A stretch of 38,081 nucleotides of DNA from Chloroflexota bacterium (GCA_022570885.1 JACZYW010000003.1:1-38081); one strand, 5' to 3'; positions 6,038-32,683 are shown, counted from the stretch's first letter. The notes: generated by a model not told the origin, from the letters alone. Program-made: numbers and translations.

Positions 6038-6057
6038 CTATGCATATTGTGCAGGAT

Positions 6058-6102
6058 TGGAGCGGAAGAGGAGATTCGAACTCCCGACCCCCTCCTTGGC
6101 AA
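6058..6102 (-). repeat. tRNA-Gly(GCC) 3' fragment; att-like direct repeat, copy 1
   Basis: Minus strand TTGCCAA GGAGG GGGTC GGGAG TTCGAAT CTCCT CTTCCGC T CCA, i.e. anticodon loop to CCA. No matching 5' half. 6056-6081 is identical to 30623-30648. Confidence 0.85.
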
Positions 6103-6116
6103 ATGGGGCCCGGCTC

Positions 6117-6167
6117 TGCAAGCTGCTACCGACGCTACCACTCCTATTCGGTCGATGCAAGCTGCTA
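6117..6167 (+). repeat. 12-bp direct repeat TGCAAGCTGCTA (6117-6128, 6156-6167); possible integrase arm sites
   Basis: Exact repeat seen next to the att core; function is inferred. Confidence 0.5.
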
Positions 6168-6320
6168 ACAATTAGGGGGTCGCGGAGCGTGTAAGTTAGG
6201 TGGTCTGGCCTAACAGTGGCCTTCAGATCGCTCTACAAGATGGCTGGGAACGGGGCCAAGTCGCCCATCCTCCATTGGCCAACGTCCATGGCTAGCTCAA
6301 AGGCCTAACCTAACCGACCC

Positions 6321-6370
6321 TCTGCTTCCCCAGCAGAGGGTCGACGGTTTGAGTCCGTTCTCCCGCTCCA
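6321..6370 (+). pseudogene. degenerate tRNA-Gly(CCC) 3' fragment (second att-like scar)
   Basis: TCTGC-TTCCCCA-GCAGA anticodon arm, GGGTC, GACGG-TTTGAGT-CCGTT T arm (TTC mutated to TTT), CTCCCGC-T-CCA. No 5' acceptor strand or D arm upstream. Confidence 0.75.
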
Positions 6371-6513
6371 CGATCACAATATTGCCCTCTAGTCACTAGT
6401 CTTTAACCCCTTCGTCTCGGAGGCCTCGGGCCTCGTTGACTGCTGGACGCTGACACGGCCGGCGAAGGAGGGTCATCATAGCTCGGAGGTCGAGACGGAG
6501 AGGGTGGCATGAC

Positions 6514-6700
6514 GTGGACAAGTCCGACATCCGGGTGAGTGAACTGGTGAGTCATTCCTGGTGAACCAGGATGACCGTAACCATTCGCCCAAGAACGTGC
6601 GCTGGTACAGCGACATGCTGAGCCGCTGGGCCGCTTCGCCGCGTCCCTGTCAGCAGAGGCACGGCTGCGCGACATCGACGCCGCTGCAATCCGCGCGGCG
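6514..6700 (+). pseudogene. tyrosine recombinase/integrase N-terminal remnant (frameshifted)
   Basis: Joining three frames gives (M)DKSDIRVSELV / ESFLVNQDDRNHSPKNVRWYSDMLSRWAA / ARLRDIDAAAIRA. This resembles the integrase SAM-like S-P-x-T-(I/V)-x-x-Y signature and lies just 3' of a tRNA fragment. Confidence 0.6.
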
Positions 6701-6873: not shown

Positions 6874-6876
6874 AGC

Positions 6877-6902: not shown

Positions 6903-6919
6903 CATCATGGATATCGGTG

Positions 6920-8506
6920 ATGGCTGACGCGACGTTTGACGCTGTCATTATCGGTGCCGGGCACAACGGGATGGCGCTGGGCACCTACTTGGCGAGATGC
7001 GGCTGGGACGTGGCGATCTTTGAGAAGCGCGCCGAAGAGGGCGGGGGCCTCTGCACGGAGGAGCTCACCCGGCCCGGTTTTCTCCACAACGTTCACTGCA
7101 ACTATCACACGCTGGTTGGCGTCTGTCCTGTGTACGACGACCTAGGGCTCTACGACCATGGCCTGGAATACGTTCAGCCACCGGTGCAGATGGGCAGCGT
7201 GTTCCGCGATGGCACCGCTCTCACGGTGCATACGGATATCGACAAGACCTGTGCCTCCTTCGCCCGCTTCTCGGAAAAGGATGCGGAGACGTTCCGGCGG
7301 CTCCATGATGAGGTGAAGGGGTACCTTGACCTCATCTTAAGTACCTTGATGTACTCCCCGCCTATCCCGCTCGTCGATATTACGAAGGCGATGGTCGTTT
7401 GGCAGGTGGCAGACAAGTCGGAGTTCCTCAGTGTTCATCTGCGTAACAAGACGATTAGCGAGTTCTTGGACGAGCACTTCGAGAACGACAAAATCAAGGC
7501 GCAGCTCGCGTTCCAGGCGGCTATCTCCGGCTACGCCACGGACCGCAGAGGGCTGGCCGTCTCCTTCCCGCTGCTGGTGGGCAAGATGGACAACTGGCAC
7601 GTCTGCGTCGGCGGCTCCCACCAGCTAGCCCATTCATTGTGGGAGGCTTTTAGCCACGCTGGCGGAAGCATCTTCCTAAACACGCCGGTCGCCGGCATAT
7701 TGACCGAGAACGGGCGCAGCACCGGCGTCCGTCTCTACGACGGGAGCGAAGTGCGAGCGCGGCACGTCGTTGCCAGCACGATCGACCTCGAGCAGACCTT
7801 CCTGAAAATGCTTCCTCGCGAAAAGCTCGATCCGAAGCTGATCAGTCAGATCGAAAACTCCTCCCACATGGATTGGTCCTACTATAGCGTCCACCTCGCC
7901 ATGCGGGAGCCACCGCAGTATGCGGCGGCCGAGTTCGATCCGGATGTGCAGAACGCGTGGGTGCTGAACGTGGGATACGAGTCGCTAGAGGAGCTGAATG
8001 CAGACTGGCGGGCGGTGCGAGCTGGTAAGCTTCCCGATCCTCGGCCGAACTGCGCCGTCAACACACTCTTCGACCCCTCGGATGCGCCGGATGGCTTTTA
8101 CACCGGCCTCATGCGCCAGTTCGCTCCTATCGATATCGGCCGGGGCGGCATCGAGGCCTGGGATGAGATGGCCAATTCGTACGGCGAGCGTTGCATCGAT
8201 GCTTGGGCGGACTACGCACCTAACATTCGAGATGCCGTGATCGAATGGGTACCCTATACTCCTCTCGATATCTCGCGACGCATGGTGAACATGGTGCGTG
8301 GCGATTGGATGGGTGGCCTCGTCGATCTGGACAATCTGCTAACGGAGCGTCCCTGCCCAGAGCTCTCTCAGTACCGCACGCCGTTCAAAGGTCTCTACCT
8401 GTGCGGCGCCACCCAGCATCCGCACGGATTTATCACCTTTGCGCCGGGCTACAACGCCTTGCAAGTGATCGCGGAAGACTACGGGTTGGACCGATGGTGG
8501 CAGTAG
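6920..8506 (+). CDS. FAD-dependent oxidoreductase, phytoene dehydrogenase-related (COG1233), paralog 1
   Basis: IIGAGHNG dinucleotide motif, EKR..EGG, GGSHQLAHSL, YRTPFKGLYLCGATQHPHG; alternative start GTG 6917. Confidence 0.88.
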   Translation: MADATFDAVIIGAGHNGMALGTYLARCGWDVAIFEKRAEEGGGLCTEELTRPGFLHNVHCNYHTLVGVCPVYDDLGLYDHGLEYVQPPVQMGSVFRDGTALTVHTDIDKTCASFARFSEKDAETFRRLHDEVKGYLDLILSTLMYSPPIPLVDITKAMVVWQVADKSEFLSVHLRNKTISEFLDEHFENDKIKAQLAFQAAISGYATDRRGLAVSFPLLVGKMDNWHVCVGGSHQLAHSLWEAFSHAGGSIFLNTPVAGILTENGRSTGVRLYDGSEVRARHVVASTIDLEQTFLKMLPREKLDPKLISQIENSSHMDWSYYSVHLAMREPPQYAAAEFDPDVQNAWVLNVGYESLEELNADWRAVRAGKLPDPRPNCAVNTLFDPSDAPDGFYTGLMRQFAPIDIGRGGIEAWDEMANSYGERCIDAWADYAPNIRDAVIEWVPYTPLDISRRMVNMVRGDWMGGLVDLDNLLTERPCPELSQYRTPFKGLYLCGATQHPHGFITFAPGYNALQVIAEDYGLDRWWQ

Positions 8507-9033
8507 TGAGCGCCGCTTCAGCGAACGAGGTCTTGCCCGTCACCCTCGCCGCGGGGGACGAGGCCAGCGGCCTGGCCCGCATCATCTGCCAGTACCTGGA
8601 ACAGCTCTTCGCCGATTCGCAGGAGAAACGAGACGAGGCCGCGAGGCTACGCGGCCATCTCGGTCTGCGTGCTCGCGAGGGCGATGTTGCCATCACCGTT
8701 GCTTTTACCGAGGACGGCGTCGCCGTAGAGGAGGGGCTGCGCGAACCGGATGCTGTCGTGAACGGAGAAGTTGAGTTCCTGATGCACGTGCTGGCCGGAC
8801 GGGCGAATCCCGCCTGGGAAGTCCTTAGAGGTACCGTGGCGTTCCAGCCACGGCCCCTCCGTCCGCTGTTTGGCTATCAGGCCTACCGCGTGATGCGTCT
8901 GCCGCACGTGCATCTATGGAGCGGGCTGCCACGCCCACCGGTTGGTCTCCTGGTGGGCACTGCAGTCTTGGTGAGTGCCGTAGTGCTGGCGCGGCGGCGG
9001 CGAGTGCGAGCTTCGGGTGGTGACGATGGCTGA
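8506..9033 (+). CDS. SCP2-like lipid-binding domain protein with C-terminal membrane anchor
   Basis: ITVAF...VAVEEGLREPDAVVNG...LAGRANPAWEVLRGTV resembles SCP2; C-terminal hydrophobic helix followed by RRRR. The real start is probably GTG 8506 (or ATG 8494), not 8245. Confidence 0.6.
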   Translation: MSAASANEVLPVTLAAGDEASGLARIICQYLEQLFADSQEKRDEAARLRGHLGLRAREGDVAITVAFTEDGVAVEEGLREPDAVVNGEVEFLMHVLAGRANPAWEVLRGTVAFQPRPLRPLFGYQAYRVMRLPHVHLWSGLPRPPVGLLVGTAVLVSAVVLARRRRVRASGGDDG

Positions 9034-10639
9034 CGCAACCTTCGACGCGGTGATCATCGGCGCGGGACACAACGGGCTCTGCCTCGCGGCGTACTTGGCC
9101 AAGGCAGGCCTCTCCGTGGGCATCTTCGAACGCCGGCACGAGGACGGCGGCGGCGCCAACACGGAAGAGGCGACCGTCCCTGGGTTCCACCACAATCTCC
9201 ACGGCCAGTACATGGAGTTCATCGACTACATGCCCGTGTATCACGACTTCGAGCTTGAAAAGTTGGGCGCACGCATGATCTACCCGGAAGTGCAGCTCGG
9301 CATTACCTTCGCGGACGGCCGCCCACCCATCGTCATCTACCGGCCAGGCGCCGATCTCGACGAGAAGACCCGCAAGAGCATCGCCCACTACTCCAAGAAC
9401 GACGCTGATGTCTGGCTGGAGCTGAAACGCAAGGTCATGGAGCGTGACCGAACGATAGCCGCCACGCTCTACAGTCCGGCGGAAGCTGAGGACGATGAGC
9501 AAACGCCGGCGGCCATGATGAGCGCTGGGCTGTCCCTTTGGACAGACCTGGGCCTGGCGCCGAACGACATCGGCAAGGCGCCCAAGGTGCTTATCGACCG
9601 GCTCTTCGAATCGACGGAGATGCGTACCCTCCTCTACCGGCAATGCATCGAATGGGGTGCTAACGTGCACGCCGGAAACGGCTACGGATTCCTAATCTCC
9701 GTGCTCTGGCTGAGCGCCATCCACAAGATGTCGGTGGGCGGCACGCATACCCTGGCTCACGCCATGGCGAACGCCTGCATGAAGCAAGGCGTGTCCATTC
9801 GCTTTACCAAGCCGGTCGTGAAGATTGTGATGAAGAACGGGCGGGCGTCCGGCATCCAACTCAAGGACGGAACGGAGATCGAGGCAAGAAAGCTCGTCGC
9901 CTCCAACGTGGACCCAAGGCAGACGTTCGTCGATTTCATCGGCGAGGAGAACCTGACGTCCTTCCGGCGGGAGCGGCTGGCCCACTGGCGCTTCGGGCCG
10001 GAGCATGTGCTGGGCGTGCCATCGTTCGCGCTCCGCGAGGCGCCGAAGTACAAGTCGGCGAGGTGGAACCCGGACATCGACCGCTGCTTCTACACGCTGG
10101 TGGGCTTCGAGGATGAAGAGCAGATGTCAAACTACATTCTCCAGGCGTATGGCGGCGCGATACCGGATCGGCCGGGCGCCGGTACCTGGGTGAACTCTCT
10201 CTGGGACCCGACGCAGGCGCCGCCCGGTAAGCACGCGATGAACGGGTGGTTCTTCTTCCCGCGCGCCTCCTGTCTGTCGCCCGAGGAGTGGGACGAGGTG
10301 CGCGCCACATACAACGATCGCTTCCTCCAACTGTGGGGCGAATACGCGCCCAATATGACCCGCGAGAATGTGATCGCCGACCGGCTCTACACCGCATTCG
10401 ACATCGAGAAGAAGATCGGAATGCCAGAGGGAGACTTCTCCCACGGCCGCTCCGGCAGCGGCATGGGCGGCATCGTCGGCGGCTACCAGTACCGGACGGA
10501 GATCCCCGGCCTCTACCTCTGCGGCGCCTCGGCTGGCGGGGGCGGGATCAGCGCCGCACCCGGTTACAGCGCGTTCAAGGTGATCTGCAAGGATCTCAAG
10601 CTGCCCAAGGTCTGGCAGCAAGAGTATCGGGACTACTAA
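9026..10639 (+). CDS. FAD-dependent oxidoreductase, phytoene dehydrogenase-related (COG1233), paralog 2
   Basis: Same MADATFDAVIIGAGHNG start as paralog 1; GGTHTLAHAM; DPTQAPPGKH; YRTEIPGLYLCGAS. Confidence 0.88.
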   Translation: MADATFDAVIIGAGHNGLCLAAYLAKAGLSVGIFERRHEDGGGANTEEATVPGFHHNLHGQYMEFIDYMPVYHDFELEKLGARMIYPEVQLGITFADGRPPIVIYRPGADLDEKTRKSIAHYSKNDADVWLELKRKVMERDRTIAATLYSPAEAEDDEQTPAAMMSAGLSLWTDLGLAPNDIGKAPKVLIDRLFESTEMRTLLYRQCIEWGANVHAGNGYGFLISVLWLSAIHKMSVGGTHTLAHAMANACMKQGVSIRFTKPVVKIVMKNGRASGIQLKDGTEIEARKLVASNVDPRQTFVDFIGEENLTSFRRERLAHWRFGPEHVLGVPSFALREAPKYKSARWNPDIDRCFYTLVGFEDEEQMSNYILQAYGGAIPDRPGAGTWVNSLWDPTQAPPGKHAMNGWFFFPRASCLSPEEWDEVRATYNDRFLQLWGEYAPNMTRENVIADRLYTAFDIEKKIGMPEGDFSHGRSGSGMGGIVGGYQYRTEIPGLYLCGASAGGGGISAAPGYSAFKVICKDLKLPKVWQQEYRDY

Positions 10640-10649
10640 GGAGCACGTC

Positions 10650-11141
10650 ATGCCCGCCATCTACACAGGACCGTGGTACGACAGCATGAAGGACATCCTC
10701 AACAGCAGCGACGCCGTGACGAAGAACGCGCCACGTGGTGTCTGGCACATCTTGGCCGAGATCCGAGGTGATGGTGCGTCGCCGTACCTCTCGGAAGACG
10801 AGGTGAAGCGCTTCGCCATCGTCCTCAACGACGGCAAGTGCGAAAGCTACGCGGAGCTGACGGAGCCGCCTCCACGCAAGGACTTCCAGTTCATTCTCGA
10901 GCTACCTGCTGTCCTCTTCGAGCGAATCGTCGCCAACCAAGCTGACCCCGTGGAGGCTGGCCTGAAAGGCGCCATCAAGATCATCGGGGACATGCGGGTG
11001 ATGATCCAAAACGCGGAGCTGGTGAAGATCATCTCGGAGATCTACCAGCAGGAGGTCGAGACAGAGTGGCCGAAGGGCATGCCACCGTATCCGGCCTTAG
11101 CGACGGCTCAGGCCGGGGAGTCGATCGGGGGCAGCGCATGA
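10650..11141 (+). CDS. SCP2 sterol-binding-domain-like protein
   Basis: FERIVANQADPVEAGLKGAIKIIGDM matches the SCP2 C-terminal DPxxAxxxGxxKxxGD pattern; AAGGAG RBS. Confidence 0.7.
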   Translation: MPAIYTGPWYDSMKDILNSSDAVTKNAPRGVWHILAEIRGDGASPYLSEDEVKRFAIVLNDGKCESYAELTEPPPRKDFQFILELPAVLFERIVANQADPVEAGLKGAIKIIGDMRVMIQNAELVKIISEIYQQEVETEWPKGMPPYPALATAQAGESIGGSA

Positions 11142-13906
11142 CGTACGCAGGCCTACAGCTCCACGCCCTCGGCACGAAGGAAGCGGGAGAACGCGCTTCA
11201 TACGGTTCATGGCAGGACATCTACCGCGAGAAGTGGACCTGGGACCGGGTGGTGAAGGGAACCTGCAACCGGGCGGACTGCATCTCCGCCTGCTCGCTCA
11301 ACCTGTTCGTGAAAGACGGCATCGTCTGGCGGGAGGAGCAGAACCCGATCTTCGAGCAGACCAACGCCTCGGTCCCGGACTTTAACCCGCGCGGCTGCCA
11401 GAAGGGGATTTGCTACAGCGATCTGATGTACGACCCCTCTCGCATCAAGTACCCGCTGCGCCGCGTGGGCGAACGGGGCTCCGGCAAGTGGGAGCGCATT
11501 TCCTGGGACGAGGCGCTGACCGAGATCGCTGACAAGATCATCGATGTCTGTCTGGAAGACGGGCCGGAGAGCGTCGTCTACGACTTCGGCACGACGAACA
11601 TTGACTTTGGCCCGGGCACTCCGGCTGAGCAGCATCTCACCCGGCTCATAGGCACCACCACGCTGGACGAGTGGGCGGGCGTGGGCGACCTGCCCATGGG
11701 CGCCATCCAGACCTGGGGCCTCTTCAACGCTGACGGCACCTCCGACGACTGGTTCAACGCTGAGACGATCCTCGTTTGGTTGGGCAACCCCGTCTATACT
11801 CGCGTGCCGGACGTCCACTTCATGTGGGAGGCGCGCTACCACGGCACCAAGGTCGTCACCATCGCGCCGGACTACAACGCTACCGCCGTCCATTCCGATC
11901 TCTGGCTGAACCCGCGTGTCGGCACCGACGCCGCACTCGCCCTCGCCATGTGCCAGGTCATCGTAGAGGAAGGGCTGCTCAAGGAGCAGTACGTGCAGGA
12001 ACAGACAGACCTGCCGTTTCTGCTGCGCGAGGACACCCGCCGCTTCCTGCGCCAGTGCGATCTGGTCGAAGGCGGCAAAGAGGATGTCTTCTACGTCTGG
12101 GATCGGGCGTCGAACGAGCCGCGGGAGGCGCCGGGAACGGCCGGACAGGAGGAAGCGTTGATCGCCCTCGGCGATCTCGACCCGGCGCTCGAGGGTAAGT
12201 TCATCGTGAAGCTGGCCGATGGTCAACAGGTATCTGTGCGCCCTGTGTTTGCGCTCCTGCGGGAGCGGCTACGCGACTACACGCCAGAGCTGGCGGCGCA
12301 GATCACCGGCGTCAGCGCCAGCGTGATCCGTCGCCTGGCGCATCAGGTGGCCGAGAGCCGGGCGGTCATGGTCTTCTGCTCCTGGGGCTCCTGTAAGCAC
12401 TACCACATGGACCTCGTCCAGCGCTCGATTATCCTGCTGCTGGCGCTGACAGGCAACACCGGCAAGCGAGGCGCCGGCATGCGTATCGGCGCGTGGTGGA
12501 ACATGTCGCTCAGCTACGACCGCTCCATCGGCTCCCTGGCTGGGGGCGGCGAGCGGGCCAAGGTCCGGGACCTTGAGAAGATGATGAAGGCGCTGATGCG
12601 CGCCAATAGCTCTATGACGCCAGTAATGGTCTGGCTCTACGCGCATGACGAGGGGTATGCCAAGCTCGTCGATACGCCGGCCTACCACGATCCCGACCTC
12701 CCCCGCCCCATAAGCGAGTACATGCGCGAGGCGTTGGACAAGAACTGGATGCCGCTCTATCCGAAGGAAGGCAAAACGCCCCGAGTCTTCCTGTACACCG
12801 GCATGAACCCGCTCCGCCGCTGGCCCGCGCCGGACGTCATCCGCGAGAATCTCTGGGCGAAGCTGGAGCTGATCGTCACCTGGGAGTTCCGTATGTCCAG
12901 CTCGGCTATGTTCTCGGACATCATCCTGCCGGCAGCCGGCTGGCACGAGAAGTCCGGCGTGAAATTCTGCCAGAGCTATGTGCCGTACATCTGCGTGGGC
13001 GAGAAAGCGGTGGAGCCGCTCTACGAGTCGAAGAACGAGTTCGACATTATGGCCAACCTGGCAGCCACGCTCCAGAGGCGCGCGCAGGAGCGGGAGGAAG
13101 GCGTGTATACCGACGCCTTCGGAAACGAGCATGACCTGCGTGAGATCGCTCGCCTCTGGAGCTATGACGGCGAGTTCGGCGAGGGCGATGCGGAGAAGGC
13201 GTTGGAAGTCGCATTCGAGCTCTCGGAGCCGGTCGGCGACGCCTCATGGGCGGATGCGGCGCGCGCCGGCGCGGTACGGGTCAAAAGCACCGGCGGCTAC
13301 GGCCCTATCACTGCCATCACCAGCGATATGCGTGAAGACGAGACCGTCTACCCCTTCGCCTGGTTCGTCGAGGAGAAGGAGCCGTGGCCCACGCTCACCG
13401 GCCGCCAGCAGTTCTACATCGACCACCCGTGGTTCCTAGAGGTAGGCGAGGAGTTGCCGCTGCACAAGGAGCCGCCCCCTGCCGGTGGCAACTACCCGCT
13501 GCGGATGACCGGCGGGCACACCCGTTGGAGCATCCACTCCATCTGGCGCGCCAACCGCACGCTCCTCCGTCTTCAGCGCGGTGAGCCGGTGATGTACGTC
13601 AGCCCGCAGGACGCCGAAGCGCGCGGTCTCAAAGATCATGATCTGGCCCGGGTCCGGAATGATGTGGGCGGGTTCAAGGTTCGCGTCAAGCTGGCGGCTA
13701 GCATTCAGCCTGGGCAGGTGGTGATGTACCACGCCTGGGAGCCGTACCAGTTCGAAGACTGGATAGGCCAGCAAGCGGTCAACGCTTCGCCGTTGAAGCC
13801 GCTTCACCTGGTGGGCGATTATGTCCAGCTCCAGTACCGCTTCGCCCTGGCCCAGCCCAGCCACATCTCACGGGCGATGACGGTGGAGCTAGAGAAGGCA
13901 GACTGA
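11138..13906 (+). CDS. DMSO reductase family type II molybdoenzyme alpha subunit 1 (EbdA/S25dA-like); no Tat signal
   Basis: WQDIYREKWTWD; FS0 GTCNRADCISAC...PRGCQKG; Mo-ligand region WAGVGDLP; TLTGRQQFYIDH; GHTRWSIHS; ATGA coupling to the upstream gene. Confidence 0.93.
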   Translation: MTYAGLQLHALGTKEAGERASYGSWQDIYREKWTWDRVVKGTCNRADCISACSLNLFVKDGIVWREEQNPIFEQTNASVPDFNPRGCQKGICYSDLMYDPSRIKYPLRRVGERGSGKWERISWDEALTEIADKIIDVCLEDGPESVVYDFGTTNIDFGPGTPAEQHLTRLIGTTTLDEWAGVGDLPMGAIQTWGLFNADGTSDDWFNAETILVWLGNPVYTRVPDVHFMWEARYHGTKVVTIAPDYNATAVHSDLWLNPRVGTDAALALAMCQVIVEEGLLKEQYVQEQTDLPFLLREDTRRFLRQCDLVEGGKEDVFYVWDRASNEPREAPGTAGQEEALIALGDLDPALEGKFIVKLADGQQVSVRPVFALLRERLRDYTPELAAQITGVSASVIRRLAHQVAESRAVMVFCSWGSCKHYHMDLVQRSIILLLALTGNTGKRGAGMRIGAWWNMSLSYDRSIGSLAGGGERAKVRDLEKMMKALMRANSSMTPVMVWLYAHDEGYAKLVDTPAYHDPDLPRPISEYMREALDKNWMPLYPKEGKTPRVFLYTGMNPLRRWPAPDVIRENLWAKLELIVTWEFRMSSSAMFSDIILPAAGWHEKSGVKFCQSYVPYICVGEKAVEPLYESKNEFDIMANLAATLQRRAQEREEGVYTDAFGNEHDLREIARLWSYDGEFGEGDAEKALEVAFELSEPVGDASWADAARAGAVRVKSTGGYGPITAITSDMREDETVYPFAWFVEEKEPWPTLTGRQQFYIDHPWFLEVGEELPLHKEPPPAGGNYPLRMTGGHTRWSIHSIWRANRTLLRLQRGEPVMYVSPQDAEARGLKDHDLARVRNDVGGFKVRVKLAASIQPGQVVMYHAWEPYQFEDWIGQQAVNASPLKPLHLVGDYVQLQYRFALAQPSHISRAMTVELEKAD

Positions 13907-13922
13907 GGAAAGGAGCGAAGCC

Positions 13923-14573
13923 ATGCTCGTAAAACGCGTCGAGGTGAACCGTGAGGACCTGTTGGATCCAACCAATGAGGCGTGGCGGCGGACCCGGGGA
14001 AGCAAGACGGTACTTTCGCCAATACCGTTGGCGATGCAGCCCGCGGAGTATGTGCGCGTCTCCTGGGAAGACCGCCCCTATGGCGTGGTGACCAGCATGA
14101 GAGTGACCGCCTTTCACAATGGTCAGGAGATCTTCTTTCGCCTTGTGTGGGACGACGCCACTGTGGACAAGCAGATCGCGGACATCGATCAGTTTGTGGA
14201 TGCCGCGGCCGTGCTATTCCCTGTGGTGCCCGATGCGCCCCTCATCGGCATGGGGGCCGAAGGCAAGCCCGTCAACGCCTGGCTCTGGCGCGCTGACTGG
14301 GAGCAACCGAAGAACGTGGTGGCGGAAGGGATGGGCACAACCAAACGTCGAGAGGATCCTGCCCTCGTCTCGAAAGCCAAGCACCAGCGTGGGCGTTGGG
14401 TGGTGGTCATCTCGCGTTCGTTGAACGGAAAGGACTCGCCGGCTGGAACGGTGAGATTGGAACCGGGCGCCACATCCAAGGTCGCGTTCGCCATCTGGCA
14501 GGGCTCCAACCAAGAGCGAGCTGGCATCAAGGCCTTCTCGCCGGCCTGGCAGGAGCTGGAGATCGAAGCGTAG
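13923..14573 (+). CDS. type II DMSO reductase heme b (gamma) subunit, EbdC-like
   Basis: IFFRLVWDD, FVDAAAVLFP, LIGMG (Met ligand), VNAWLWRA, AFAIWQGSNQERAGIK (Lys ligand). Confidence 0.9.
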   Translation: MLVKRVEVNREDLLDPTNEAWRRTRGSKTVLSPIPLAMQPAEYVRVSWEDRPYGVVTSMRVTAFHNGQEIFFRLVWDDATVDKQIADIDQFVDAAAVLFPVVPDAPLIGMGAEGKPVNAWLWRADWEQPKNVVAEGMGTTKRREDPALVSKAKHQRGRWVVVISRSLNGKDSPAGTVRLEPGATSKVAFAIWQGSNQERAGIKAFSPAWQELEIEA

Positions 14574-14590
14574 CAGAAAGCAGGGCTCTC

Positions 14591-15661
14591 ATGCCTGAGC
14601 AACAGATCGAGCGGCAATTAGCCTTCGTCTTTGACCTCAATAAATGTCTCGGCTGCCAGACGTGCACCATCTCGTGCAAGACGCTCTGGACCGACCAGCC
14701 CGGCATGGAGTATATGTGGTGGAACATCGTCAACACCATGCCTGGCCGGGGCACGCCGCGCGACCGCGACCAGTCCGGCGGCGGGTTCGACGCGCAGGGC
14801 AAAGCGCAAGCCGGCATCTTGCCGAGCGCGCGTGACTTCGGCGAGGCGTGGGAGTTCAACTACGACGAGGTATTCTACGGAGGGAAAGGCCAGTCCGCCT
14901 ACCTCCATCCCCGCCGTCCGGGCAGCAACGGCGATAGCGCGGACGAGGCGCCGGACTGGGGCCCCAATTGGGACGAGGACCAAGGCGCCGGGGAATACCC
15001 CAACAGCTACTACTTCTACCTACCCACCATCTGCATGCACTGCACCAACCCCGCCTGCATGGAGGCCTGTCCTCGCGAGGCGATCTTCAAACGCCAGGAA
15101 GACGGGATCGTCCTCATCGACGAGGAACGATGCTCCGGCTACCGCTTCTGCATGGAGGCCTGTCCTTACAAGCGGATCTACTTCAACCCTAAGCGGTTCA
15201 TCTCGCAGAAGTGCGTGATGTGCTTCGCCCGGCTGGAGCAGGGCGTGGCGCCCGCTTGCGTCCGCCAGTGCCCGGGGCGGGTCCGCCACTTCGGCTACCT
15301 GGACGACCAGGAGAGCGACGTCTACAAGCTAGTGAAGACGTGGAAGGTGGCGATACCCCTCCATCCCGAGTTCGGCACCCAACCCAACGTCTACTACGTG
15401 CCACCGCTCGCTCCGCCTCGTTTCGACGAGAACGGCGATATCGACGAGGAGAATCCGCGCATCCCCATGGAGTACCTCCGTTCGCTCTTCGGCCCCGAGG
15501 TGGATGGGGCGCTGGCCGTACTCAAACAGGAGATGGAGAAGACGCGCAGCGGCGAGCGATCAGAGCTGATGGACCTGCTCATTGCCTACCGCTGGCAGGA
15601 CATGTTCACGCCCTTTGTCGAAGACCCGGGCAAGCTGGATCGGTCACAGGTACGATCGTGA
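14591..15661 (+). CDS. type II DMSO reductase Fe-S (beta) subunit 1, EbdB/NarH-like
   Basis: FDLNKCLGCQTCTISC, CMHCTNPACMEACP, CSGYRFCMEACPY, CVMC...ACVRQCP; WGPNWDED. Confidence 0.94.
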   Translation: MPEQQIERQLAFVFDLNKCLGCQTCTISCKTLWTDQPGMEYMWWNIVNTMPGRGTPRDRDQSGGGFDAQGKAQAGILPSARDFGEAWEFNYDEVFYGGKGQSAYLHPRRPGSNGDSADEAPDWGPNWDEDQGAGEYPNSYYFYLPTICMHCTNPACMEACPREAIFKRQEDGIVLIDEERCSGYRFCMEACPYKRIYFNPKRFISQKCVMCFARLEQGVAPACVRQCPGRVRHFGYLDDQESDVYKLVKTWKVAIPLHPEFGTQPNVYYVPPLAPPRFDENGDIDEENPRIPMEYLRSLFGPEVDGALAVLKQEMEKTRSGERSELMDLLIAYRWQDMFTPFVEDPGKLDRSQVRS

Positions 15662-16338
15662 TGCAGATCGATGCTCTGACGACGCCAGAGGAAGAGACGG
15701 CCGCCGCCCGCAGCAGCCTCTACCGGCTTCTGGCCGATGGCTTCGTCTATCCAGATAAGGCCTGCTTCGCCGCCATCAAGGCGGGCCGCTATCGAGATGA
15801 CGCGCAGGGAATCTGTGACGCTCTTCCCTATGATCTGGAGCCCGCCTACGATGGCCTCGTCGCTTCCGGCACCTACATGGACTTTCAGGCCGAGTACCTG
15901 CGGTTGTTCGAGCTTGGCACAGGCATGCCGCCGTGCCCCCTCTTCAGCGGCCTGTTTCAGGGTGGCCGCAAGGCAGTGATGGAGGAGCTCACCCGCTTCT
16001 ACCACTTCTTCGGCCTCTCGATCGAGCAGGGCAGCGGCGAGCTGCCGGACCACATCACGACCGAGCTTGAGTTCATGCACTTTCTTACGTTCAAGGAGCT
16101 GATGGCGCTACGGCAGGGCGAGGACGCGGTTCCCTGCCGCCGGGCGCAGGCGGACTTCCTGGAACGGCAGCTCGTATCGTGGCTGCCGGCGCTGGAGGAG
16201 CGACTGCAGAAGCTGGAGCCGCCGACGTTCTACGTTGCGTTGGTCTGGCTGACGAGCGCCGTTACCCGGGCCGAACTCGATTCGCTCCGCCAGACACTGG
16301 AACGAACCGCCACGATCCCCCTGGAGGTACGGGCATGA
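15661..16338 (+). CDS. TorD/DmsD-family chaperone (delta subunit, EbdD-like)
   Basis: EYLRLF, ELTRFYHFFGL, ELPDHITTELEFMHFL, QADFLERQLVSW; stop/start overlap with the beta gene. Confidence 0.9.
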   Translation: MQIDALTTPEEETAAARSSLYRLLADGFVYPDKACFAAIKAGRYRDDAQGICDALPYDLEPAYDGLVASGTYMDFQAEYLRLFELGTGMPPCPLFSGLFQGGRKAVMEELTRFYHFFGLSIEQGSGELPDHITTELEFMHFLTFKELMALRQGEDAVPCRRAQADFLERQLVSWLPALEERLQKLEPPTFYVALVWLTSAVTRAELDSLRQTLERTATIPLEVRA

Positions 16339-18106: not shown

Positions 18107-18108
18107 GC

Positions 18109-20940: not shown

Positions 20941-20954
20941 CAAAGGAGGCAATC

Positions 20955-21998: not shown

Positions 21999-22064
21999 GG
22001 CCGGCGCAATGACGCTTGCCAGACCTTCGGGCCGGGCGCAGGCCTCGACGTCGAAGGAGGCGAG

Positions 22065-25064: not shown

Positions 25065-26497
25065 TGGCGCTTCTCGACCTCGGCAGCGAGGCTCCGGCCC
25101 GCCGCCTGCCGCTCCGCTTCGACGAGCTGGAGCGGACGACGGCTGAGGCGCTGGCCGACGCCGACCGGCCGCTGGGCACGCTAGGCCACCTGGCGCTGTG
25201 GGCCAACCTGGGCACAGGCCTCTACCTGCTGGTCGTCGGCGCCTGGCTGGTGCCGGCGCTCAGCATCCCCCAGGCGATCGTCGCCACCGTCATCGGCGCC
25301 TCGCTGGGCTCAGCGATGGTGGCCGCGGCGGTGCGGTTGGGGGCGGCCGAGAACCGGCCGGGCGTGGCACTCCACCGAGATGCTCTGGGCAAATCCGGCG
25401 CGAACGTCTACGGCGTCCTCGCAGGCTTTCGACACCTGGCCTGGGGTGCGATCCAGCTCGCCATCGCCGCCGAGGTAGCCGCCGTCGTGATGGCCCGCCA
25501 GGGCATGGGCGGCGGCCGGCCGCTCTGGGCGGCGATCTTCGGAGCGCTGGTGCTCCTCATGGTGCTCGCCGGGCCGAGCACGGTGATCCGTCGCTGGCTG
25601 GTGCCGAGCGTGGCGCTCACGCTGCTCATCGCCGCCGTCTTCGCCTACTCGGCCTGGTCCGACTTCGGCATTTCGGCGATGCTCAAGCGCGAGCCGACGG
25701 GCGGCTGGCCGGGCATGACCGGCGCCGTCGACATCGTCGCTGCCGTCGCTCTCATCTCGCTTCCCGTCGCCACAGACCTTGGACGGCTGGGGAGCGCGCG
25801 GCGGGCAGGCCGCGCCGCCTTCGCCGGACTGGCGGGCATGACGATATGGTTCGTCCTCCTGGGCGTACTCTTCGTGCCGGCTGTCGATGGCCGCGACCTG
25901 GCGGGCTTCCTGCTCGCGACGCCGGCCGGCGCTCTGGTACTGATACTGCTGGTCGTACTCGAACTGGACGGCGCGTTCGTCAGCCTCTACGCGCTGTCTT
26001 CGACAGTGCGCGGCTGGGCGCCGAAGGCGAACGCCGCCCTGCCGGTGGCAGTCGGGGGTGCGGCGGTCTTCGCGCTGGGTGCGGCGCTCCTCGACCCGTT
26101 CAACTTTGGCGACGCGCTCCTGCTGCTGGGCGCTGCCTTCGCGCCACTGCTCGGCGTGCTGCTGGCAGTCAGGCTGGTGCGTCGCTGGTGGTTCCAGGTG
26201 ACGGGGGAAACTCGGCTGCGGCCTGACGGACGGTTGGAGATCATCAGCGGGAGTGTATCGCTGCCAGTACTGGGTGGCGCCTTTGCCTGGGCGATGGGCT
26301 TTCTGCTCTACAACTGGGCGGCGCCGCTAGAGGTGCCTGGATGGACAGCAGCGATGTCGGTCCTCTTTCAAGATGTCCTGCGGCTCCCCTTCCCGGCGGG
26401 CGTGCCTGGCCTGAGCGCTACCGCTCTGGGCTTCGCTGTCGCGTTCGTGGTGGCTGGGGGGTCAACGGCGCTTGGGGCGCGGCGGCATGCCGCCTGA
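25064..26497 (+). CDS. NCS1-family (cytosine/purine, CytX-like) permease
   Basis: About 12 hydrophobic segments; HLALWANLG, LG..GANVYGVL...RHLAWGAIQ, LPVATDLGR, LLGAAFAPLLGVLLA; TGATG coupling. Confidence 0.75.
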   Translation: MALLDLGSEAPARRLPLRFDELERTTAEALADADRPLGTLGHLALWANLGTGLYLLVVGAWLVPALSIPQAIVATVIGASLGSAMVAAAVRLGAAENRPGVALHRDALGKSGANVYGVLAGFRHLAWGAIQLAIAAEVAAVVMARQGMGGGRPLWAAIFGALVLLMVLAGPSTVIRRWLVPSVALTLLIAAVFAYSAWSDFGISAMLKREPTGGWPGMTGAVDIVAAVALISLPVATDLGRLGSARRAGRAAFAGLAGMTIWFVLLGVLFVPAVDGRDLAGFLLATPAGALVLILLVVLELDGAFVSLYALSSTVRGWAPKANAALPVAVGGAAVFALGAALLDPFNFGDALLLLGAAFAPLLGVLLAVRLVRRWWFQVTGETRLRPDGRLEIISGSVSLPVLGGAFAWAMGFLLYNWAAPLEVPGWTAAMSVLFQDVLRLPFPAGVPGLSATALGFAVAFVVAGGSTALGARRHAA

Positions 26498-26513
26498 GGC
26501 TGTGGGAAACGCG

Positions 26514-28265
26514 ATGTTCAACAGCAACGTACAATCAATGGCGCCAGAGAAACCGGACGGTAGCCGCGTCTTGGTCATCGCCGCCGTGATGGCAGCACTC
26601 TTCGTATCGGCCATCAGTCAGACGGTGGTAACGACAGCGCTGCCGCGCATGATCGGCGATCTGGGCGGGCTGAGCCTCTATAGCTGGGTGCTCACGTCAT
26701 CGATGCTCGCCGCTACCGTGGCCATGCCTCTGGTGGGCAAGCTCTCCGATCTCTACGGACGCAAGCCGTTCCTGATGGGTGGTATCGCCCTCTTCATGGT
26801 CGCCTCGGCCTTTACTGGGGCCTCACAGAACATGTTGCAGCTCATCGGTTTCCGGGCCGTGCAGGGGCTGGCAGGCGGGACGATCATGGCCAGCGCCTTC
26901 GCCACCATCGGTGATCTCTTCCCGCCGGCGGAACGCGGACGGTACTTCGGACTCTTCACCGGCGTCTTCGGTCTCGCCAGCGTCGCCGGGCCGCTCCTCG
27001 GCGGTTTCGTCACCGACCACTGGGGCTGGCGCTGGGTCTTCTACATAAACGTGCCCTTTGGCCTGCTGGCGTTGGCGGTGCTGACAAAAGGGATGCGCTG
27101 GCAGCGCCCAGACGAGTCGGAGCGTCGGGCGGTGCCTATCGATTGGATGGGGATGGTCGCCCTCCTCTGGGCCGTGATCCCTCTGCTGCTGGCGTTGGCC
27201 TGGGCGGGCGACCGCTTCCCATGGGTCTCCGCCCCGATCGGAGCGTTGCTGGGGATAGCAGGACTGGGTTTCTTCGCCTTCCTCGCGATCGAGCGTGGAG
27301 CAGCGGACCCGGTGCTCCCGCTCTCCCTCTTTCGCGTGCGGACGTTCGTGGTGGCATCCGCCGCCGCCTTCCTGACGGGCATCGGGTTGTTCGGAGCGCT
27401 CAGCTACATGCCGCTGTTCATCCAGGGCGTGCTGGGCGCTTCGGCGACGAACTCCGGCCTGGTCAATATGCCGCTGATGCTCGGCTTGACCGCCGCCAGC
27501 CTTGCCTCCGGCATGGTGGCCAGCCGGACAGGCCGCTATCGATGGATGGTCATCGCCGGTGGCTTTGTGCTGGTGGGCGGGATGGCCATCATGGCTACGC
27601 TGGACGAGCAGGCCAGCCTGGCCCTGCCCATCGTGGGGATGATCGTGGTGGGCCTGGGACTGGGGCTCAGCATGCCGCTGCTCGGCCTCGCCGTCCAGAA
27701 CGCCCTAGACGACCGTTTGCTCGGCGTGGCGACAGCATCGAGTCAGTTCTTCCGCCAGATCGGCGGCACGCTGGGTATCGCCCTCTTCGGCACCATCATC
27801 ACGACGCAGATCCAGGGCGGCCTTATTGGACGGCTGCCAGAGGAGGTGACCAGCGTTGCGCCACCAGAAGCGCTCCGCCAACTGGAGGAGCCGCGCATCC
27901 TGCTCAGCCCCCAGGCGCTGGAGCAGCTACGCGGGACGTTCGCAGCCTTCGGCGACACTGGGCCCGCGCTCTACGATCAGACGCTCGCTGCGATGCGCGG
28001 TGTCCTGGCGGACGGCCTGCAAGAAGTCTTCCTCGTAGGGCTCTTGGTGGCGGTCCTCGCTTTCGCCGTTAGCGTCTTCCTTCCGGAGCTGCCGCTGCGA
28101 ACGCGAGCGTCTGGAGAGCAAGAGCGGGCGTCTGCGCCGGCCGACTTGATCTGGGACGACGCATCGTGGATACGCGAGGGACGCACCCTCCACGAGGTGC
28201 CAGTCGATGAAGCACCGCCACACGCGGCAGCGGTCCCCCAAGCCGGAGAGGCAGGTGACAGCTAA
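26514..28265 (+). CDS. MFS DHA2 (14-TMS, EmrB/QacA-like) efflux transporter
   Basis: QTVVTTALP, GKLSDLYGRK, FRAVQGLAGG, GPLLGG, WRWVFYINVP, FFRQIGG. Start uncertain (26487, 26514 or 26538). Confidence 0.9.
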   Translation: MFNSNVQSMAPEKPDGSRVLVIAAVMAALFVSAISQTVVTTALPRMIGDLGGLSLYSWVLTSSMLAATVAMPLVGKLSDLYGRKPFLMGGIALFMVASAFTGASQNMLQLIGFRAVQGLAGGTIMASAFATIGDLFPPAERGRYFGLFTGVFGLASVAGPLLGGFVTDHWGWRWVFYINVPFGLLALAVLTKGMRWQRPDESERRAVPIDWMGMVALLWAVIPLLLALAWAGDRFPWVSAPIGALLGIAGLGFFAFLAIERGAADPVLPLSLFRVRTFVVASAAAFLTGIGLFGALSYMPLFIQGVLGASATNSGLVNMPLMLGLTAASLASGMVASRTGRYRWMVIAGGFVLVGGMAIMATLDEQASLALPIVGMIVVGLGLGLSMPLLGLAVQNALDDRLLGVATASSQFFRQIGGTLGIALFGTIITTQIQGGLIGRLPEEVTSVAPPEALRQLEEPRILLSPQALEQLRGTFAAFGDTGPALYDQTLAAMRGVLADGLQEVFLVGLLVAVLAFAVSVFLPELPLRTRASGEQERASAPADLIWDDASWIREGRTLHEVPVDEAPPHAAAVPQAGEAGDS

Positions 28266-29260
28266 TGCGAGCGAACTTGGTTGCGATACAGGTGCGGGCG
28301 AGTATCGAAGATTACGCAAGTGGCGATACGTTTCGCCGCCGCATGGAAGGACTCATGGAGCAGGCGGCGACGAAGGTAGATTTCAACCTGCCAACCATCG
28401 TCTGCTTCCCGGAGACGGTCGGGCTATGGCTGAGCTTCGTTCCCGAGATCTATGACAACATCCGAGACTGTACGACGATTCAGCAGGCGATCGTACGGGG
28501 CATTCCACCCAATTGGAGACGCTTCCTTCGAGCTTGCTGGCGCTTCCGCACGATCGGCGTCACCACGATCTTCCTTGAGACGGCGCTGGACGCTGAGGCG
28601 ATCTACCGGAAGACTTTTTCGGATCTTGCCAAGCGCTATGGCTGCTACCTGCAAGCGGGCACGATCTACATTCCTACGATCGAAGACGAGCCAGTGAAGG
28701 GCCGTCATGTCCTCGGTCGAAAGGTGTACAACATCGCATATCTGTTCAACCCGAAGGGTGTTATCCTACAGCGTGTGCCCAAGCGCAACCTATCGCCGCC
28801 TCTCGAGCGACGCTTCCATTTCTCCCCCGGCGACCGCTTGGACCTCCACCCCGTGAATACCGCGCTCGGCCGCATGGGCATCCTTATCTGCTACGACGGG
28901 TTCCACGAATCGCTTGTGGAGCATTACGACAGTCTCGGCGTGGAGATCATCCTGAATCCTTCTCACAGCGATCGCAACTGGGAGCAGCCCGCTGGCTTCA
29001 ACCACGCCATCACCGTAGGCGAGGCCTGGGAGCAACATGGCGTTGGAGCGATGATCCAGGGGAGACCGAACATTCAGTACGCGATCGTACCCATGATGGC
29101 GGGCCGCATCCTCGACCTGGAAGGTCAGGGATGCTCCCACATCGCCGGTAACACGGGGGAGGTAGGAGCGCCGGCCGCTCGCTTCCTGCTGGCCCGGGCT
29201 ACTTCGCACACCGGCGAGGAGATCGTGGCGGCCACCGTTGAGCTACCAGAGGGCTGCTAG
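28265..29260 (+). CDS. carbon-nitrogen hydrolase (nitrilase superfamily)
   Basis: Catalytic triad FPE, VPKRNL, ICYD; YNIAYLFNPKG; TAATG coupling. Confidence 0.85.
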   Translation: MRANLVAIQVRASIEDYASGDTFRRRMEGLMEQAATKVDFNLPTIVCFPETVGLWLSFVPEIYDNIRDCTTIQQAIVRGIPPNWRRFLRACWRFRTIGVTTIFLETALDAEAIYRKTFSDLAKRYGCYLQAGTIYIPTIEDEPVKGRHVLGRKVYNIAYLFNPKGVILQRVPKRNLSPPLERRFHFSPGDRLDLHPVNTALGRMGILICYDGFHESLVEHYDSLGVEIILNPSHSDRNWEQPAGFNHAITVGEAWEQHGVGAMIQGRPNIQYAIVPMMAGRILDLEGQGCSHIAGNTGEVGAPAARFLLARATSHTGEEIVAATVELPEGC

Positions 29261-29299
29261 GAGGAAGAGGCACCGGCAGCATCACAGGAGGGCGCAGCA

Positions 29300-30091
29300 A
29301 TGGAGCAAGACATTATCTCGTCTGGCTACGACGCAGTGTATGGGAGCACGGCCAAAAGCCCTACGTTGCGCCGGTTGTGGCACAAGTATGCGGAAGGCCT
29401 CGACTTCCCAGAGGAGTTCAGCCACATCAGTCTTACGACGCTGCCGGAGCTCCAACGAATATCCGCCGAACTTCGGCTTAGCGCTGACGAGACGTTCGTC
29501 GACCTCGGCTGCGGCATGGCCGGGCCAGCGCTATGGGTGGCACGCGAGACGGGCGCGCAACTCATCGGTGTAGACCTCTCGCGTGTCGCGACGGAGCAGG
29601 CAAGCGCCCGCGCGGCCGAGCTTGGGCTGGCTGAGCAGGCGCAGTTCGTCGTTGGTTCGTTCACTGATACTGGCCTGGAGGCCAATGTAGCCGCGGGGCT
29701 CATGAGCGAGGACGCCATCCAGTACGCGCCCGACAAGCGGGCCGCTATGGTTGAGGCCGCGCGTATCCTGCGCCGTGGCGGCCGGTTCGTCTTCACTGTC
29801 TACGAACTCGATCCGGATCGCGCCGCCGGCCTCCCGATCCTCGGGGCTGATCTAGTCGATGACTATCGACCGCTGTTGGCGGATGCGGGATTTCGCGTGG
29901 AGACCTACGAGGAGACTCCGGGCTGGCCGGAGCCGATGACGACGACGTACTCGGCTCTTCTCGACGAAAAGGAGGCGCTGACCGAAGAGATGGGCGAGGC
30001 CGCCGCCGGCGCGCTAATCGTTGAGCTTTCGCTGACGCTCGAGCATCGGCCGTACCGGCGGCGTGTGCTAATCGTGGCGACGAGGGAGTGA
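29300..30091 (+). CDS. class I SAM-dependent methyltransferase
   Basis: VDLGCGMAGP, GVDLS, EAARILRRGGRFVF; AGGAGG RBS. Confidence 0.88.
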   Translation: MEQDIISSGYDAVYGSTAKSPTLRRLWHKYAEGLDFPEEFSHISLTTLPELQRISAELRLSADETFVDLGCGMAGPALWVARETGAQLIGVDLSRVATEQASARAAELGLAEQAQFVVGSFTDTGLEANVAAGLMSEDAIQYAPDKRAAMVEAARILRRGGRFVFTVYELDPDRAAGLPILGADLVDDYRPLLADAGFRVETYEETPGWPEPMTTTYSALLDEKEALTEEMGEAAAGALIVELSLTLEHRPYRRRVLIVATRE

Positions 30092-30315
30092 CGTAATCCA
30101 GAGGCAGCGCGCTATGATCTCGAGTTTAATCGGCGATAGAGAGCAACTCGTCACTTGTCTAGGCCAGGCCAGGAACCACCCCCGCGAGGAGAGCCGTGGG
30201 AGATAGGCCAAACGCCCCGGCTGAGGGATCGCTCGAAGATCGATTGGCCGCATACCTCAGCGAGCGGCTGCCGAGCGCAGAGGACGTCCGAGGGGAAGCG
30301 CAGGTGCCCATGCGA

Positions 30316-30483
30316 GGCGGCCACATGCTAGCGGGTCAGCCTGGTTAGGCTCGGCATCTCCCTGCGCGCGCGTGAAGCCAACAGCTAGCGTACCGAATCA
30401 AAGTAGCCTTTGATCGTTTTCGGGCTCTTGCCCTCGGCCCTGAGGAAGACCTGCCAGCTCGTGAGCAAATCTTCATCGAGATC
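30316..30483 (-). pseudogene. tyrosine recombinase/integrase N-terminal remnant with two in-frame stops
   Basis: Hand translation: DLDEDLLTSWQVFLRAEGKSPKTIKGYFDSVR*LLASRARREMPSLTRLTR*HVAA (TAG at 30385-87 and 30328-30); typical integrase SAM-like motif, directly 3' of the tRNA fragment. Confidence 0.75.
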
Positions 30484-30622
30484 TAATTGATCACCTTCGA
30501 GTAGATAATTAGGGTGTCGCGGATGCTGGCTGCTAACGTTAAGGCGCACGGCGCACGGCCCACCTCCCCCTCCGACCGAAAAACGGCCAGATCTAGATTC
30601 GAGCCGTGCGTCTTATTGTTTT

Positions 30623-30704
30623 ATTGGAGCGGAAGAGGAGATTCGAACCCACGGGCGGACCCCGACGGGCCCCGTCCAGGGGCGTCTGCCCGAACTCCCG
30701 ACCC
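30623..30704 (-). repeat. tRNA-Gly 3' fragment (att-like repeat, copy 2) interrupted in the T loop by a palindromic insertion
   Basis: 30623-30648 is identical to 6056-6081; identity resumes (TCCCGACCC) at 30696 after 47 extra nt. Confidence 0.85.

Positions 30705-31381: not shown

Positions 31382-32683
<1,302 letters not shown>

Follow-up and report, generated by a model that had tools for sequence, protein, structure and literature searches.

The window analyzed here (the whole stretch of DNA, 38,081 nucleotides long) is the entire contig C87 of G000, a metagenome-assembled genome of a Chloroflexota bacterium (GCA_022570885.1 JACZYW010000003.1:1-38081). It carries a gene cluster predicted to be an EBDH-type molybdenum hydroxylase operon with cofactor-maturation genes, which lies in a 24.5-kb block between two direct repeats derived from the 3' end of a tRNA-Gly. 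A preliminary description of the window had placed the whole cluster in one fossil genomic island at a tRNA-Gly gene, with intact cargo acquired horizontally and decayed mobility genes. We report on the ends of this segment, its mobility genes and the origin of its cargo, and conclude that it is probably a decayed integrative element whose cargo is native to the family.

The G000 assembly comprises 238 contigs (2.34 Mb), and is estimated to be 90.8% complete and 4.3% contaminated. Copies of the repeat were sought with at most 3 mismatches, using 100 dinucleotide shuffles as a chance control; tRNA genes were called with ARAGORN, RNA families with Rfam at the gathering cut-off, and protein domains with Pfam. 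The order-wide comparison involved 93 genomes of one Dehalococcoidia order, including G000 and the unpublished G060. Relatives compared for the operon and for flank synteny belong to the same family (15 family genomes) and to different genera. In addition, window positions 18100-38081 were checked against public sequencing runs (designated X1, X2 and so on), in the form of short Logan contigs. We call P arm and P' arm the sequences that lie, respectively, before copy 1 and after copy 2 of the repeat in tRNA orientation, that is, on the - strand.

Repeats and attachment-site arms at both ends of the segment

ARAGORN called 43 tRNAs over the 238 contigs of G000, among them a single tRNA-Gly(GCC), at C107:4417-4491. 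In the window, a 26-mer is present exactly twice, both times on the + strand, and both ends of the segment thereby carry repeats equal to the 3' part of this host tRNA in reverse complement: a contiguous 45 nt match is found at copy 1, and tRNA positions 52-75 (24 nt) are found at copy 2 (window 30625-30648, 100% identity), the final 2 bases of the 26-mer falling past the tRNA CCA (Table 1). No third copy was detected in the window with up to 3 mismatches, and a match was obtained in 0/100 dinucleotide shuffles. As the anticodon begins at position 33, its 7-nt loop opens with position 31, so that copy 1 reaches the loop exactly. The exact repeat, its correspondence to a tRNA-Gly 3' end and the extension of copy 1 to the anticodon loop had all been recognized in the preliminary description and are borne out, no such repeat being expected by chance; the intact tRNA-Gly(GCC) with a matching 3' end that it had proposed to look for is the C107 gene (100% identity). 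Within the window itself, neither ARAGORN nor Rfam at the gathering cut-off found an intact tRNA.

On its inner side (6057-6267), copy 1 shows 93-94% identity to the DNA that precedes two other tRNA-Gly(GCC) fragments (matches at C107:21034-21246 and C153:11230-11513; fragments at C107:21201-21245 and C153:11340-11384). On the corresponding side of copy 2 (30547-30622), identity is approximately 90% to C107:4468-4532, which follows the intact tRNA; indeed, over some 75-170 bases after copy 2 the P' arm is about 90% like the DNA found both after the intact tRNA and after the C107 fragment. These matches imply that the ends of the C87 segment are two different attP halves, in the order and orientation attL-element-attR, so that attP-derived arms common to other copies of the family are present at both ends. 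Compared with the arms of order relatives, the P arm of copy 1 shows 73-83% identity. It contains short repeated motifs (Table 1) of the kind expected for arm-type binding sites, and we regard these as putative sites.

Outside copy 1, the flank at 5927-6055 together with the arm is 94% identical to C153:11230-11513, and these 129 bases also resemble, at 70-75%, the DNA downstream of tRNA-Gly(CCC) in G003, G011 and G043. Copy 1 stands back to back with a tRNA-Gly(CCC) fragment, and a similar back-to-back GCC/CCC pair occurs on C153.

The outer side of copy 2 is less orderly. Between the stop codon of an F420H2-dependent quinone reductase gene (30744) and copy 2 lie a 52-base spacer, 14 nt equal to tRNA positions 43-56, and 42 unrelated GC-rich bases, with the pentamer GTTCG duplicated, one on each side of the 42-base stretch. 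By eye, this region resembles part of a 98-nt pseudo-tRNA-Gly(CCC) of G013; a candidate assignment to tRNA-Sec was rejected (Rfam match of 15.6 bits, E=3). A contig of public run X9 passes from 30650 to 30705 via 13 other letters, and hence does not contain the 42-base stretch and the 14-nt tRNA piece; these are thus missing from another population, and the stretch next to copy 2 is polymorphic. If the crossover took place in the anticodon loop, as the 45-nt fragments suggest, then the attL of C87 would have lost its crossover site.

Table 1. Features of the window, in window coordinates
Feature	Position	Strand	Evidence
Flank outside copy 1, terminator-like: GC-rich hairpin, then T run	5927..6055	-	Similarity; hairpin seen in the sequence and in Rfam alignments
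Direct repeat copy 1, 26 bp	6056..6081	-	Exact match
attR-type core: 3' 45 nt of tRNA-Gly(GCC), anticodon loop to CCA	6058..6102	-	100% to C107 tRNA positions 31-75
P-type arm, repeated CCNCCTAAYT and TAGCAGCTTGCA motifs	6103..6267	-	93-94% to C107:21034-21200 and C153:11230-11339
tRNA-Gly(CCC) 3' fragment, 50 nt, back to back with copy 1	6321..6370	+	96% to positions 27-76 of C106:4416-4491
Two FAD-dependent oxidoreductases, each followed by an SCP2-like open reading frame	6917..11141	+	Pfam DAO, Amino_oxidase, SCP2
Operon core: three EBDH-type (type II DMSO-reductase family) alpha, EB_dh gamma, two 4Fe-4S beta, delta chaperone, MobB-FmdE fusion, MobA	11066..25064	+	Pfam
Last part of cargo: 539-aa open reading frame, MFS transporter, CN-hydrolase, methyltransferase	24878..30091	+	Pfam
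Tyrosine-integrase N-terminal remnant, ~60 codons, 2 in-frame TAG, no catalytic domain	30298..30480	-	
P'-type arm, overlapping the start of the integrase frame	30455..30622	-	~90% to C107 sequences
Direct repeat copy 2, 26 bp: tRNA 52-75 plus 2 nt	30623..30648	-	Exact match
tRNA-like remnant, scrambled: 42 bases rich in GC, followed by 14 nt matching tRNA 43-56, GTTCG duplicated	30649..30709	-	

A truncated integrase

A remnant that reads as the N-terminal SAM-like region of a tyrosine recombinase lies inside the bounded segment, about 140 nt from copy 2. Its in-frame TAG stops are at 30385-30387 and 30328-30330. Pfam gives a weak match on the remnant alone (Phage_int_SAM_4, E=0.04, under the cut-off), and in an alignment of 86 residues (E=2e-11) the remnant is 37% identical to positions 56-141 of an integrase of G058, which is intact (375 aa, PF00589 E=4.8e-33 at residues 195-353) and adjoins a tRNA-Gly(CCC) gene. 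Similarity to the integrase stops beyond approximately position 30298. The stretch 30100-30290 was considered as a further part of the gene and discarded, as it matches instead, at 30194-30290, a repeat upstream of an APH-family gene on C153. The preliminary description had seen an integrase remnant 3' of copy 2; a remnant does exist, and the stretch 30649-30704, which falls within the coordinates given there, is tRNA-like and GC-rich, not integrase. Loose ends at 30411 in runs X1 and X6 point to a variant in which the N-terminal part of the integrase has a 21-base indel.

Next to the attL-type end, where a genomic island would have a catalytic integrase, there thus remain some 60 codons interrupted by two stops. 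G000 has three genes with PF00589, on C163, C8 and C224 only, and one with PF00239, on C39; neither domain was found in any gene of C87, C107 or C153, and no intact cognate integrase was detected on C87 or beside the other tRNA-Gly fragments of G000. The best helper candidate in the genome is the integrase of C224, which is 40% identical to an integrase adjoining a tRNA-Gly(CCC) gene. As no cognate integrase was found in the assembly, the element would be a fossil unable to move alone, comparable to the cis-mobilizable elements (CIMEs) discussed below. In this respect the earlier proposal of an integrated element with decayed mobility genes fits: the stump lies at the tRNA-proximal end, with no intact cognate integrase nearby.

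Related elements in G000 and in its order

Five tRNA-Gly fragments of GCC type and at least six of CCC type are present in G000. C107 carries, one after another, the tRNA, a P' arm, 16.7 kb, a P arm, a fragment, a second P' arm and then more DNA; this is an attL with, behind it, a junction resembling attP, such as tandem elements have. The upstream neighbours of this tRNA-Gly(GCC) gene are syntenic with G009 and G010. The C107:4417-21323 island (L001, L002) encodes PD40-repeat proteins, a DsbD-like protein and a GAF histidine kinase with a LuxR-type regulator, and no integrase was found in it. An inverted partial copy of the arm and fragment is located at C107:19247-19396.

On C153:19422-25306 (L003, L004) we observed short pieces, 82-90% identical to and colinear with the C87 segment. 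They correspond to window positions 30290-30194, 28926-28853, 8749-8647 and 6969-6904, and are interspersed with unrelated genes (an APH-family kinase, an SDR and a 586-aa open reading frame). They have the appearance of remains of another, eroded copy, or of DNA from a strain that was binned together with G000.

When the order was searched with window positions 5927-6270, a P arm with its fragment was found, among the matches listed, in at least 15 of 92 relatives, from 4 of 5 families. In 7 of these 15 relatives, arm and fragment share a contig with a tRNA-Gly(GCC) sequence and are located 2.8-28 kb downstream of it; the gene was confirmed as intact by ARAGORN in 5/7, the tRNAs of G011 and G071 being cut by the contig start. 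PF00589 was absent from inside the island in 5/5 such genomes checked. The smallest island of the family, of 2.8 kb (G011:C124:1-2948, L029), runs from tRNA-Gly(GCC) to P arm and fragment, and contains a P' arm with some 10 codons of the integrase, a 499-aa DUF2779 protein and a 226-aa protein. Integrase stumps similar to that of C87, all open frames of 73-282 aa, follow a tRNA-Gly(GCC) sequence (gene, contig-cut or partial copy) in 7 relatives, 5 of them with a gene called by ARAGORN. The best full-length integrase homologs (325-377 aa, in G026, G056 and G058), for their part, adjoin tRNA-Gly(CCC) genes. The element would thus belong to a family targeting tRNA-Gly(GCC), with a sister family at tRNA-Gly(CCC), widespread in the order and represented by several scars in G000.

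The attL and attR arms of G000, the P' arm included, are 83-84.5% identical to those of G010 and G011, while the acetyl-CoA-synthetase coding DNA next to the tRNA is 71-73.5% identical between G000 and G010/G009. That non-coding and pseudogene arms are better conserved than a housekeeping gene points either to constraint or to a recent horizontal spread of the element.

The operon and its counterparts in relatives

The alpha-1 subunit of the operon core matches the enzymes of PDB entries 4ydd, 5e7o and 2ivf over its full length (E ~1e-175), and C87 shares with these EBDH and perchlorate-reductase enzymes the EB_dh gamma subunit, the 4Fe-4S beta subunit and the delta chaperone. It differs from them in having three alpha paralogs in one cluster, within an expanded family, a point that concerns the cargo and not the island. 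In a genome search the three paralogs were 41-57% identical to each other, and the alpha family gave 6-14 matches per genome in order relatives, which represents a marked expansion. One open reading frame (16179-17450), which adjoins MobA, combines MobB, FmdE and a DksA/TraR-type zinc finger; this fusion of molybdenum-cofactor maturation domains is unusual, and relatives keep it at 70-82%. A 539-aa frame (24878-26497), located in a 71% GC stretch, has no Pfam match and is kept at the same place of the operon in three relatives, at 66-77%.

Among the 21 open reading frames between 6403 and 30091, Pfam scans revealed no conjugation, relaxase or recombinase domain, and no conjugation module of the ICEclc kind (relaxase and type IV secretion genes), no dedicated search with conjugation profiles having been made.

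From the first FAD enzyme to the CN-hydrolase, the operon is colinear in 3/4 same-family relatives fetched (G002, G005 and G013, representing three genera), with 54-86% amino acid identity per gene (80-86% for the two FAD enzymes and 54-84% for the two SCP2-like frames). The clusters of G005 and G013 have no MobA match and no in-place second beta gene, the CN-hydrolase match of G002 is split in two, and in G007 alpha-1 alone was found within the fetched 35 kb. At E<=1e-3, nothing in the clusters of these relatives matched the MFS transporter and the methyltransferase, which are extra in C87. In the 8 stretches fetched from relatives, no tRNA or att-like sequence was detected. Genes flanking the operon in G002, G005 and G013 have their G000 orthologs on C185, C191, C156 and C199, not on C87, which means that the operon occupies a different locus in G000. 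Such a difference would be compatible with mobilization and, equally, with relocation within the lineage. The preliminary description had named relatives carrying the operon in the same context without scars as evidence against an island; what we found is scar-free relatives with the operon in another neighbourhood.

A duplicated tRNA-Gly(TCC) near the orthologs of these flanking genes was considered and abandoned, as it shows no consistent orientation. The two copies (C185:17519-17673 and C199:1650-1804) consist of identical genes with about 80 bp of similar upstream DNA, at 95.5% over 155 bp.

Flanking DNA of the segment

Flank synteny is lost at the family level. On the right, the ABC1 kinase has orthologs (60-67% identity) in 11/15 family genomes. 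On the left, an ABC transporter has its best match in another family (58%) and reaches about 40% within its own, which made it unusable for locating an empty site. The kinase gene at the left end of C87 belongs to a multi-copy family, with up to 8 matches per genome; its best orthologs (G011:C6 and G013:C239) are directly preceded by tRNA-Gly(CCC)-derived pieces. In G011:C6 the next gene is the ortholog of a gene near the tRNA-Gly(CCC) of G000 on C106, and the homology between G011 and G000 breaks inside a degenerate anticodon arm, at C106:6879. An apparent synteny of tRNA-Gly(GCC) followed by a kinase, seen from G009, was downgraded, being a paralog-level match of 62% in this multi-copy family. 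Much of C87 may consist of variable DNA accreted at tRNA-Gly sites, as the tRNA-Gly fragments, the flank of copy 1 and these gene neighbourhoods suggest.

Two side observations concern these CCC-type loci. The 98-nt tRNA-Gly(CCC) called by ARAGORN in G013 (C239:941-1038, L164) has a hairpin in its variable region and a poor 5' part, and sits between a kinase gene and an EBDH-type alpha gene. Downstream of the tRNA-Gly(CCC) on C106, a redoxin-like frame (C106:4500-5560) has an in-frame TGA within a W-x-G-C motif, possibly encoding selenocysteine.

Interpretation and alternatives

We interpret 6056-30648 as one unit of a decayed integrative-element region, similar to a CIME, whose cargo is native to the family and was captured or relocated within the lineage, and we give this reading a probability of roughly 0.6. 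An element with a tyrosine integrase would have had the 3' half of tRNA-Gly(GCC) as its specific target, the anticodon loop being the probable place of crossover. A single integration event may have created both ends: an attL-type site composed of the tRNA end, the P' arm and the start of the integrase gene, and an attR-type site composed of the P arm and 45 nt of the tRNA. Later the integrase would have been reduced to an N-terminal stump with stop codons, and the attL core broken, leaving 26 contiguous bases and no adjoining tRNA gene; the unit is presumably immobile by itself. Given that the operon is native to the family and stands at another locus in relatives, its capture or relocation would have occurred within the lineage, without import from afar.

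A number of observations weigh against this interpretation or against the version that had been proposed at the outset. GC content is flat along the window (approximately 0.60-0.68), and the tetranucleotide distance of the island lies at the 68th percentile of 22 same-size windows, a profile typical of the genome; the only somewhat atypical 5-kb window, at the 90th percentile, is the one containing the att region. Alpha-1 is present in 29/93 genomes of the order at E<=1e-50, including 7/15 in the family, and its identity amounts to 80-83% among family members, to 61-69% when the best copies of two other families are taken, and to some 45% in yet another family; as identity tracks taxonomy, the cargo looks vertically inherited. 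Likewise, per-gene identities of the cargo (54-86%) overlap those of neighbouring core genes in relatives (about 40-84%). Neither composition nor phylogeny therefore marks the cargo as foreign, and the horizontal arrival that had been proposed for the operon, with its compositional profile as a check, is not shown. Upstream, copy 2 is joined by no tRNA gene, and the sequence on that side resembles neither a tRNA nor a P arm; the idea that it is what is left of a tRNA 5' half was rejected, since 304/2000 shuffles reached the score of the D-arm similarity. Neither repeat is the end of an intact tRNA gene, as an attL would require: the sole tRNA-Gly(GCC) that ARAGORN called in this approximately 91% complete assembly is on C107, so the layout of tRNA, integrase, cargo and displaced fragment that had been described does not exist on C87. 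No empty site could be recognized through the ABC1 kinase, as there is no synteny beyond the gene and tRNA-Gly is near 0/11 of its orthologs. A metagenome scan with the F420H2-quinone reductase yielded 80 loci (52-85% identity), many of them short, and none (0) with a tRNA-Gly or an att arm; the neighbour of the reductase in these loci is a methyltransferase that lies 2.7 kb farther off in C87. Public short contigs do not bridge copy 2: the longest pieces listed end at 30107 (X1, X2), and one from X6 runs to 30258. Finally, att modules repeated at 93-94% on three contigs of a fragmented genome with 4.3% contamination make a mis-join possible. The idea that the cluster lies in one fossil tRNA-Gly island hence survives in part: a decayed element is supported, and a single tidy island is not, the segment being one of several att-bounded units, with a CCC fragment inside.

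An unlikely alternative, although one with an appreciable chance of being right, is that the segment is an internal unit of a long accretion array or hot spot at tRNA-Gly genes, in which case copy 2 would be a scar within the array that has lost its upstream partner by deletion, and the whole contig, flanks included, would be variable DNA. This view, which refines our interpretation more than it contradicts it, accounts for the junction on C107 with more DNA beyond it, for the tRNA-Gly(CCC) fragment beside copy 1 and the CCC-like flank of that copy, for the CCC-derived pieces that precede the orthologs of the left-end kinase, and for the transporter whose closest match is outside the family. 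However, the right-flank kinase looks like a core gene from its distribution in the family, and the left-end kinase belongs to a multi-copy family. Moreover, linking contigs by end overlap or split genes failed: no word of at least 21 bases is common to the ends of C87 and any other contig, and the end frames of C106 and C87 encode different proteins.

A bolder and decidedly doubtful reading would be a standing cassette exchange, in which integrase-less att-flanked blocks, whole EBDH-type operons among them, are excised and re-integrated in trans by the related tRNA-Gly(CCC) integrases, the fragments being working sites and no fossils. It starts from these observations: arms and first integrase codons are conserved above the identity of neighbouring housekeeping DNA, every cognate integrase examined is a stump, and the islands bounded by such arms carry no recombinase.

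The two repeats might also be scars of unrelated, independently decayed elements around an operon that is ordinary chromosome and was never mobile cargo, a reading that we consider quite improbable. The native composition and taxonomy-like identity of the cargo agree with it, and with so many GCC and CCC fragments in the genome, two could bracket any region by accident. It is contradicted by the ends themselves, whose arms are of complementary types and stand exactly in the order and orientation that one element would give, by the integrase stump, which is at the attL end and reads inward, and by the relatives, as in 3/3 of those with the full operon it lies elsewhere without scars.

An assembly or binning artefact, in which repeated att modules of approximately 100-290 bp led to a chimeric junction, or in which C87 and C153 stem from two co-binned strains, is scarcely credible: the fragmentation and estimated contamination of the genome, the 94% likeness of C87 and C153 over attR and flank before they diverge, the colinear pieces on C153, a summed depth in the 30106-30772 bin above the preceding cargo bins in X1, X6 and X9 (not in X2) and the X1 and X2 pieces that stop short of copy 2 all speak for it, but assemblers normally tell apart copies that, as here, are some 6% different, words of 5400-7000, a stretch spanning copy 1, are present at 0.5-0.77 in 10 runs, at least part of that stretch occurs in 20 runs from 8 studies, and cargo and flanks are both at least 99% present in contigs of 4 runs from 4 studies.

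Relation to known elements

The decayed unit on C87 fits the known logic of tRNA-targeting tyrosine-integrase elements. CIMEs, as described in (PMC5704250), keep attL and attR and have lost integration and transfer genes; they were defined in Firmicutes, with conjugative helpers. C87 resembles CIMEs and the accretion arrays of the same description in that att sites are kept and genes lost, among att-bounded units at a tRNA 3' end. Unlike in a CIME, the attL core is broken (26/45 nt contiguous) and no tRNA gene adjoins; in the cargo, the Pfam scans showed no conjugation genes. With ICEclc, going by its description in (PMC4063739), it shares the target (tRNA-Gly, at its 3' end), a tyrosine-type integrase on the tRNA side and a catabolic cargo. 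ICEclc, in contrast, is active and self-transmissible, whereas the C87 integrase is a stump and the host is a Chloroflexota; the likeness is one of layout.

The closest comparison by host is with the ssrA islands of Dehalococcoides (PMC3146451), which, in the features reported there, belong to the same bacterial class and have in common with C87 tandem islands, direct repeats of a small-RNA 3' end, insertion in the loop of a tRNA-like domain, respiratory or catabolic cargo, and some units without integration genes. The latter are discussed in that report as possible cis-mobilizable or fixed units. The differences are the serine recombinase DsiB, the ssrA target and the 20-bp repeat, against a tyrosine recombinase remnant and tRNA-Gly in C87; indeed, C87 has neither a DsiB module nor ssrA repeats, its repeat being tRNA-Gly and the sole PF00239 match of the genome being on C39. 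One point is unusual: across the order the att arms are conserved, and the cognate integrases are truncated without exception.

That an operon is bordered by att scars is by itself no proof of foreign origin, and composition, phylogenetic pattern and synteny in relatives here designate the cargo as the lineage's own. The biology of islands in Dehalococcoidia has so far been mainly that of the ssrA, serine-recombinase islands of Dehalococcoides, and the present analysis adds to it a tRNA-Gly-specific tyrosine-integrase family, mostly devoid of integrases. That a large operon of the anaerobic-hydroxylase type, from an uncultured lineage of marine sediment, is found in such a unit offers a hypothesis for how enzyme clusters may be shuffled between loci.

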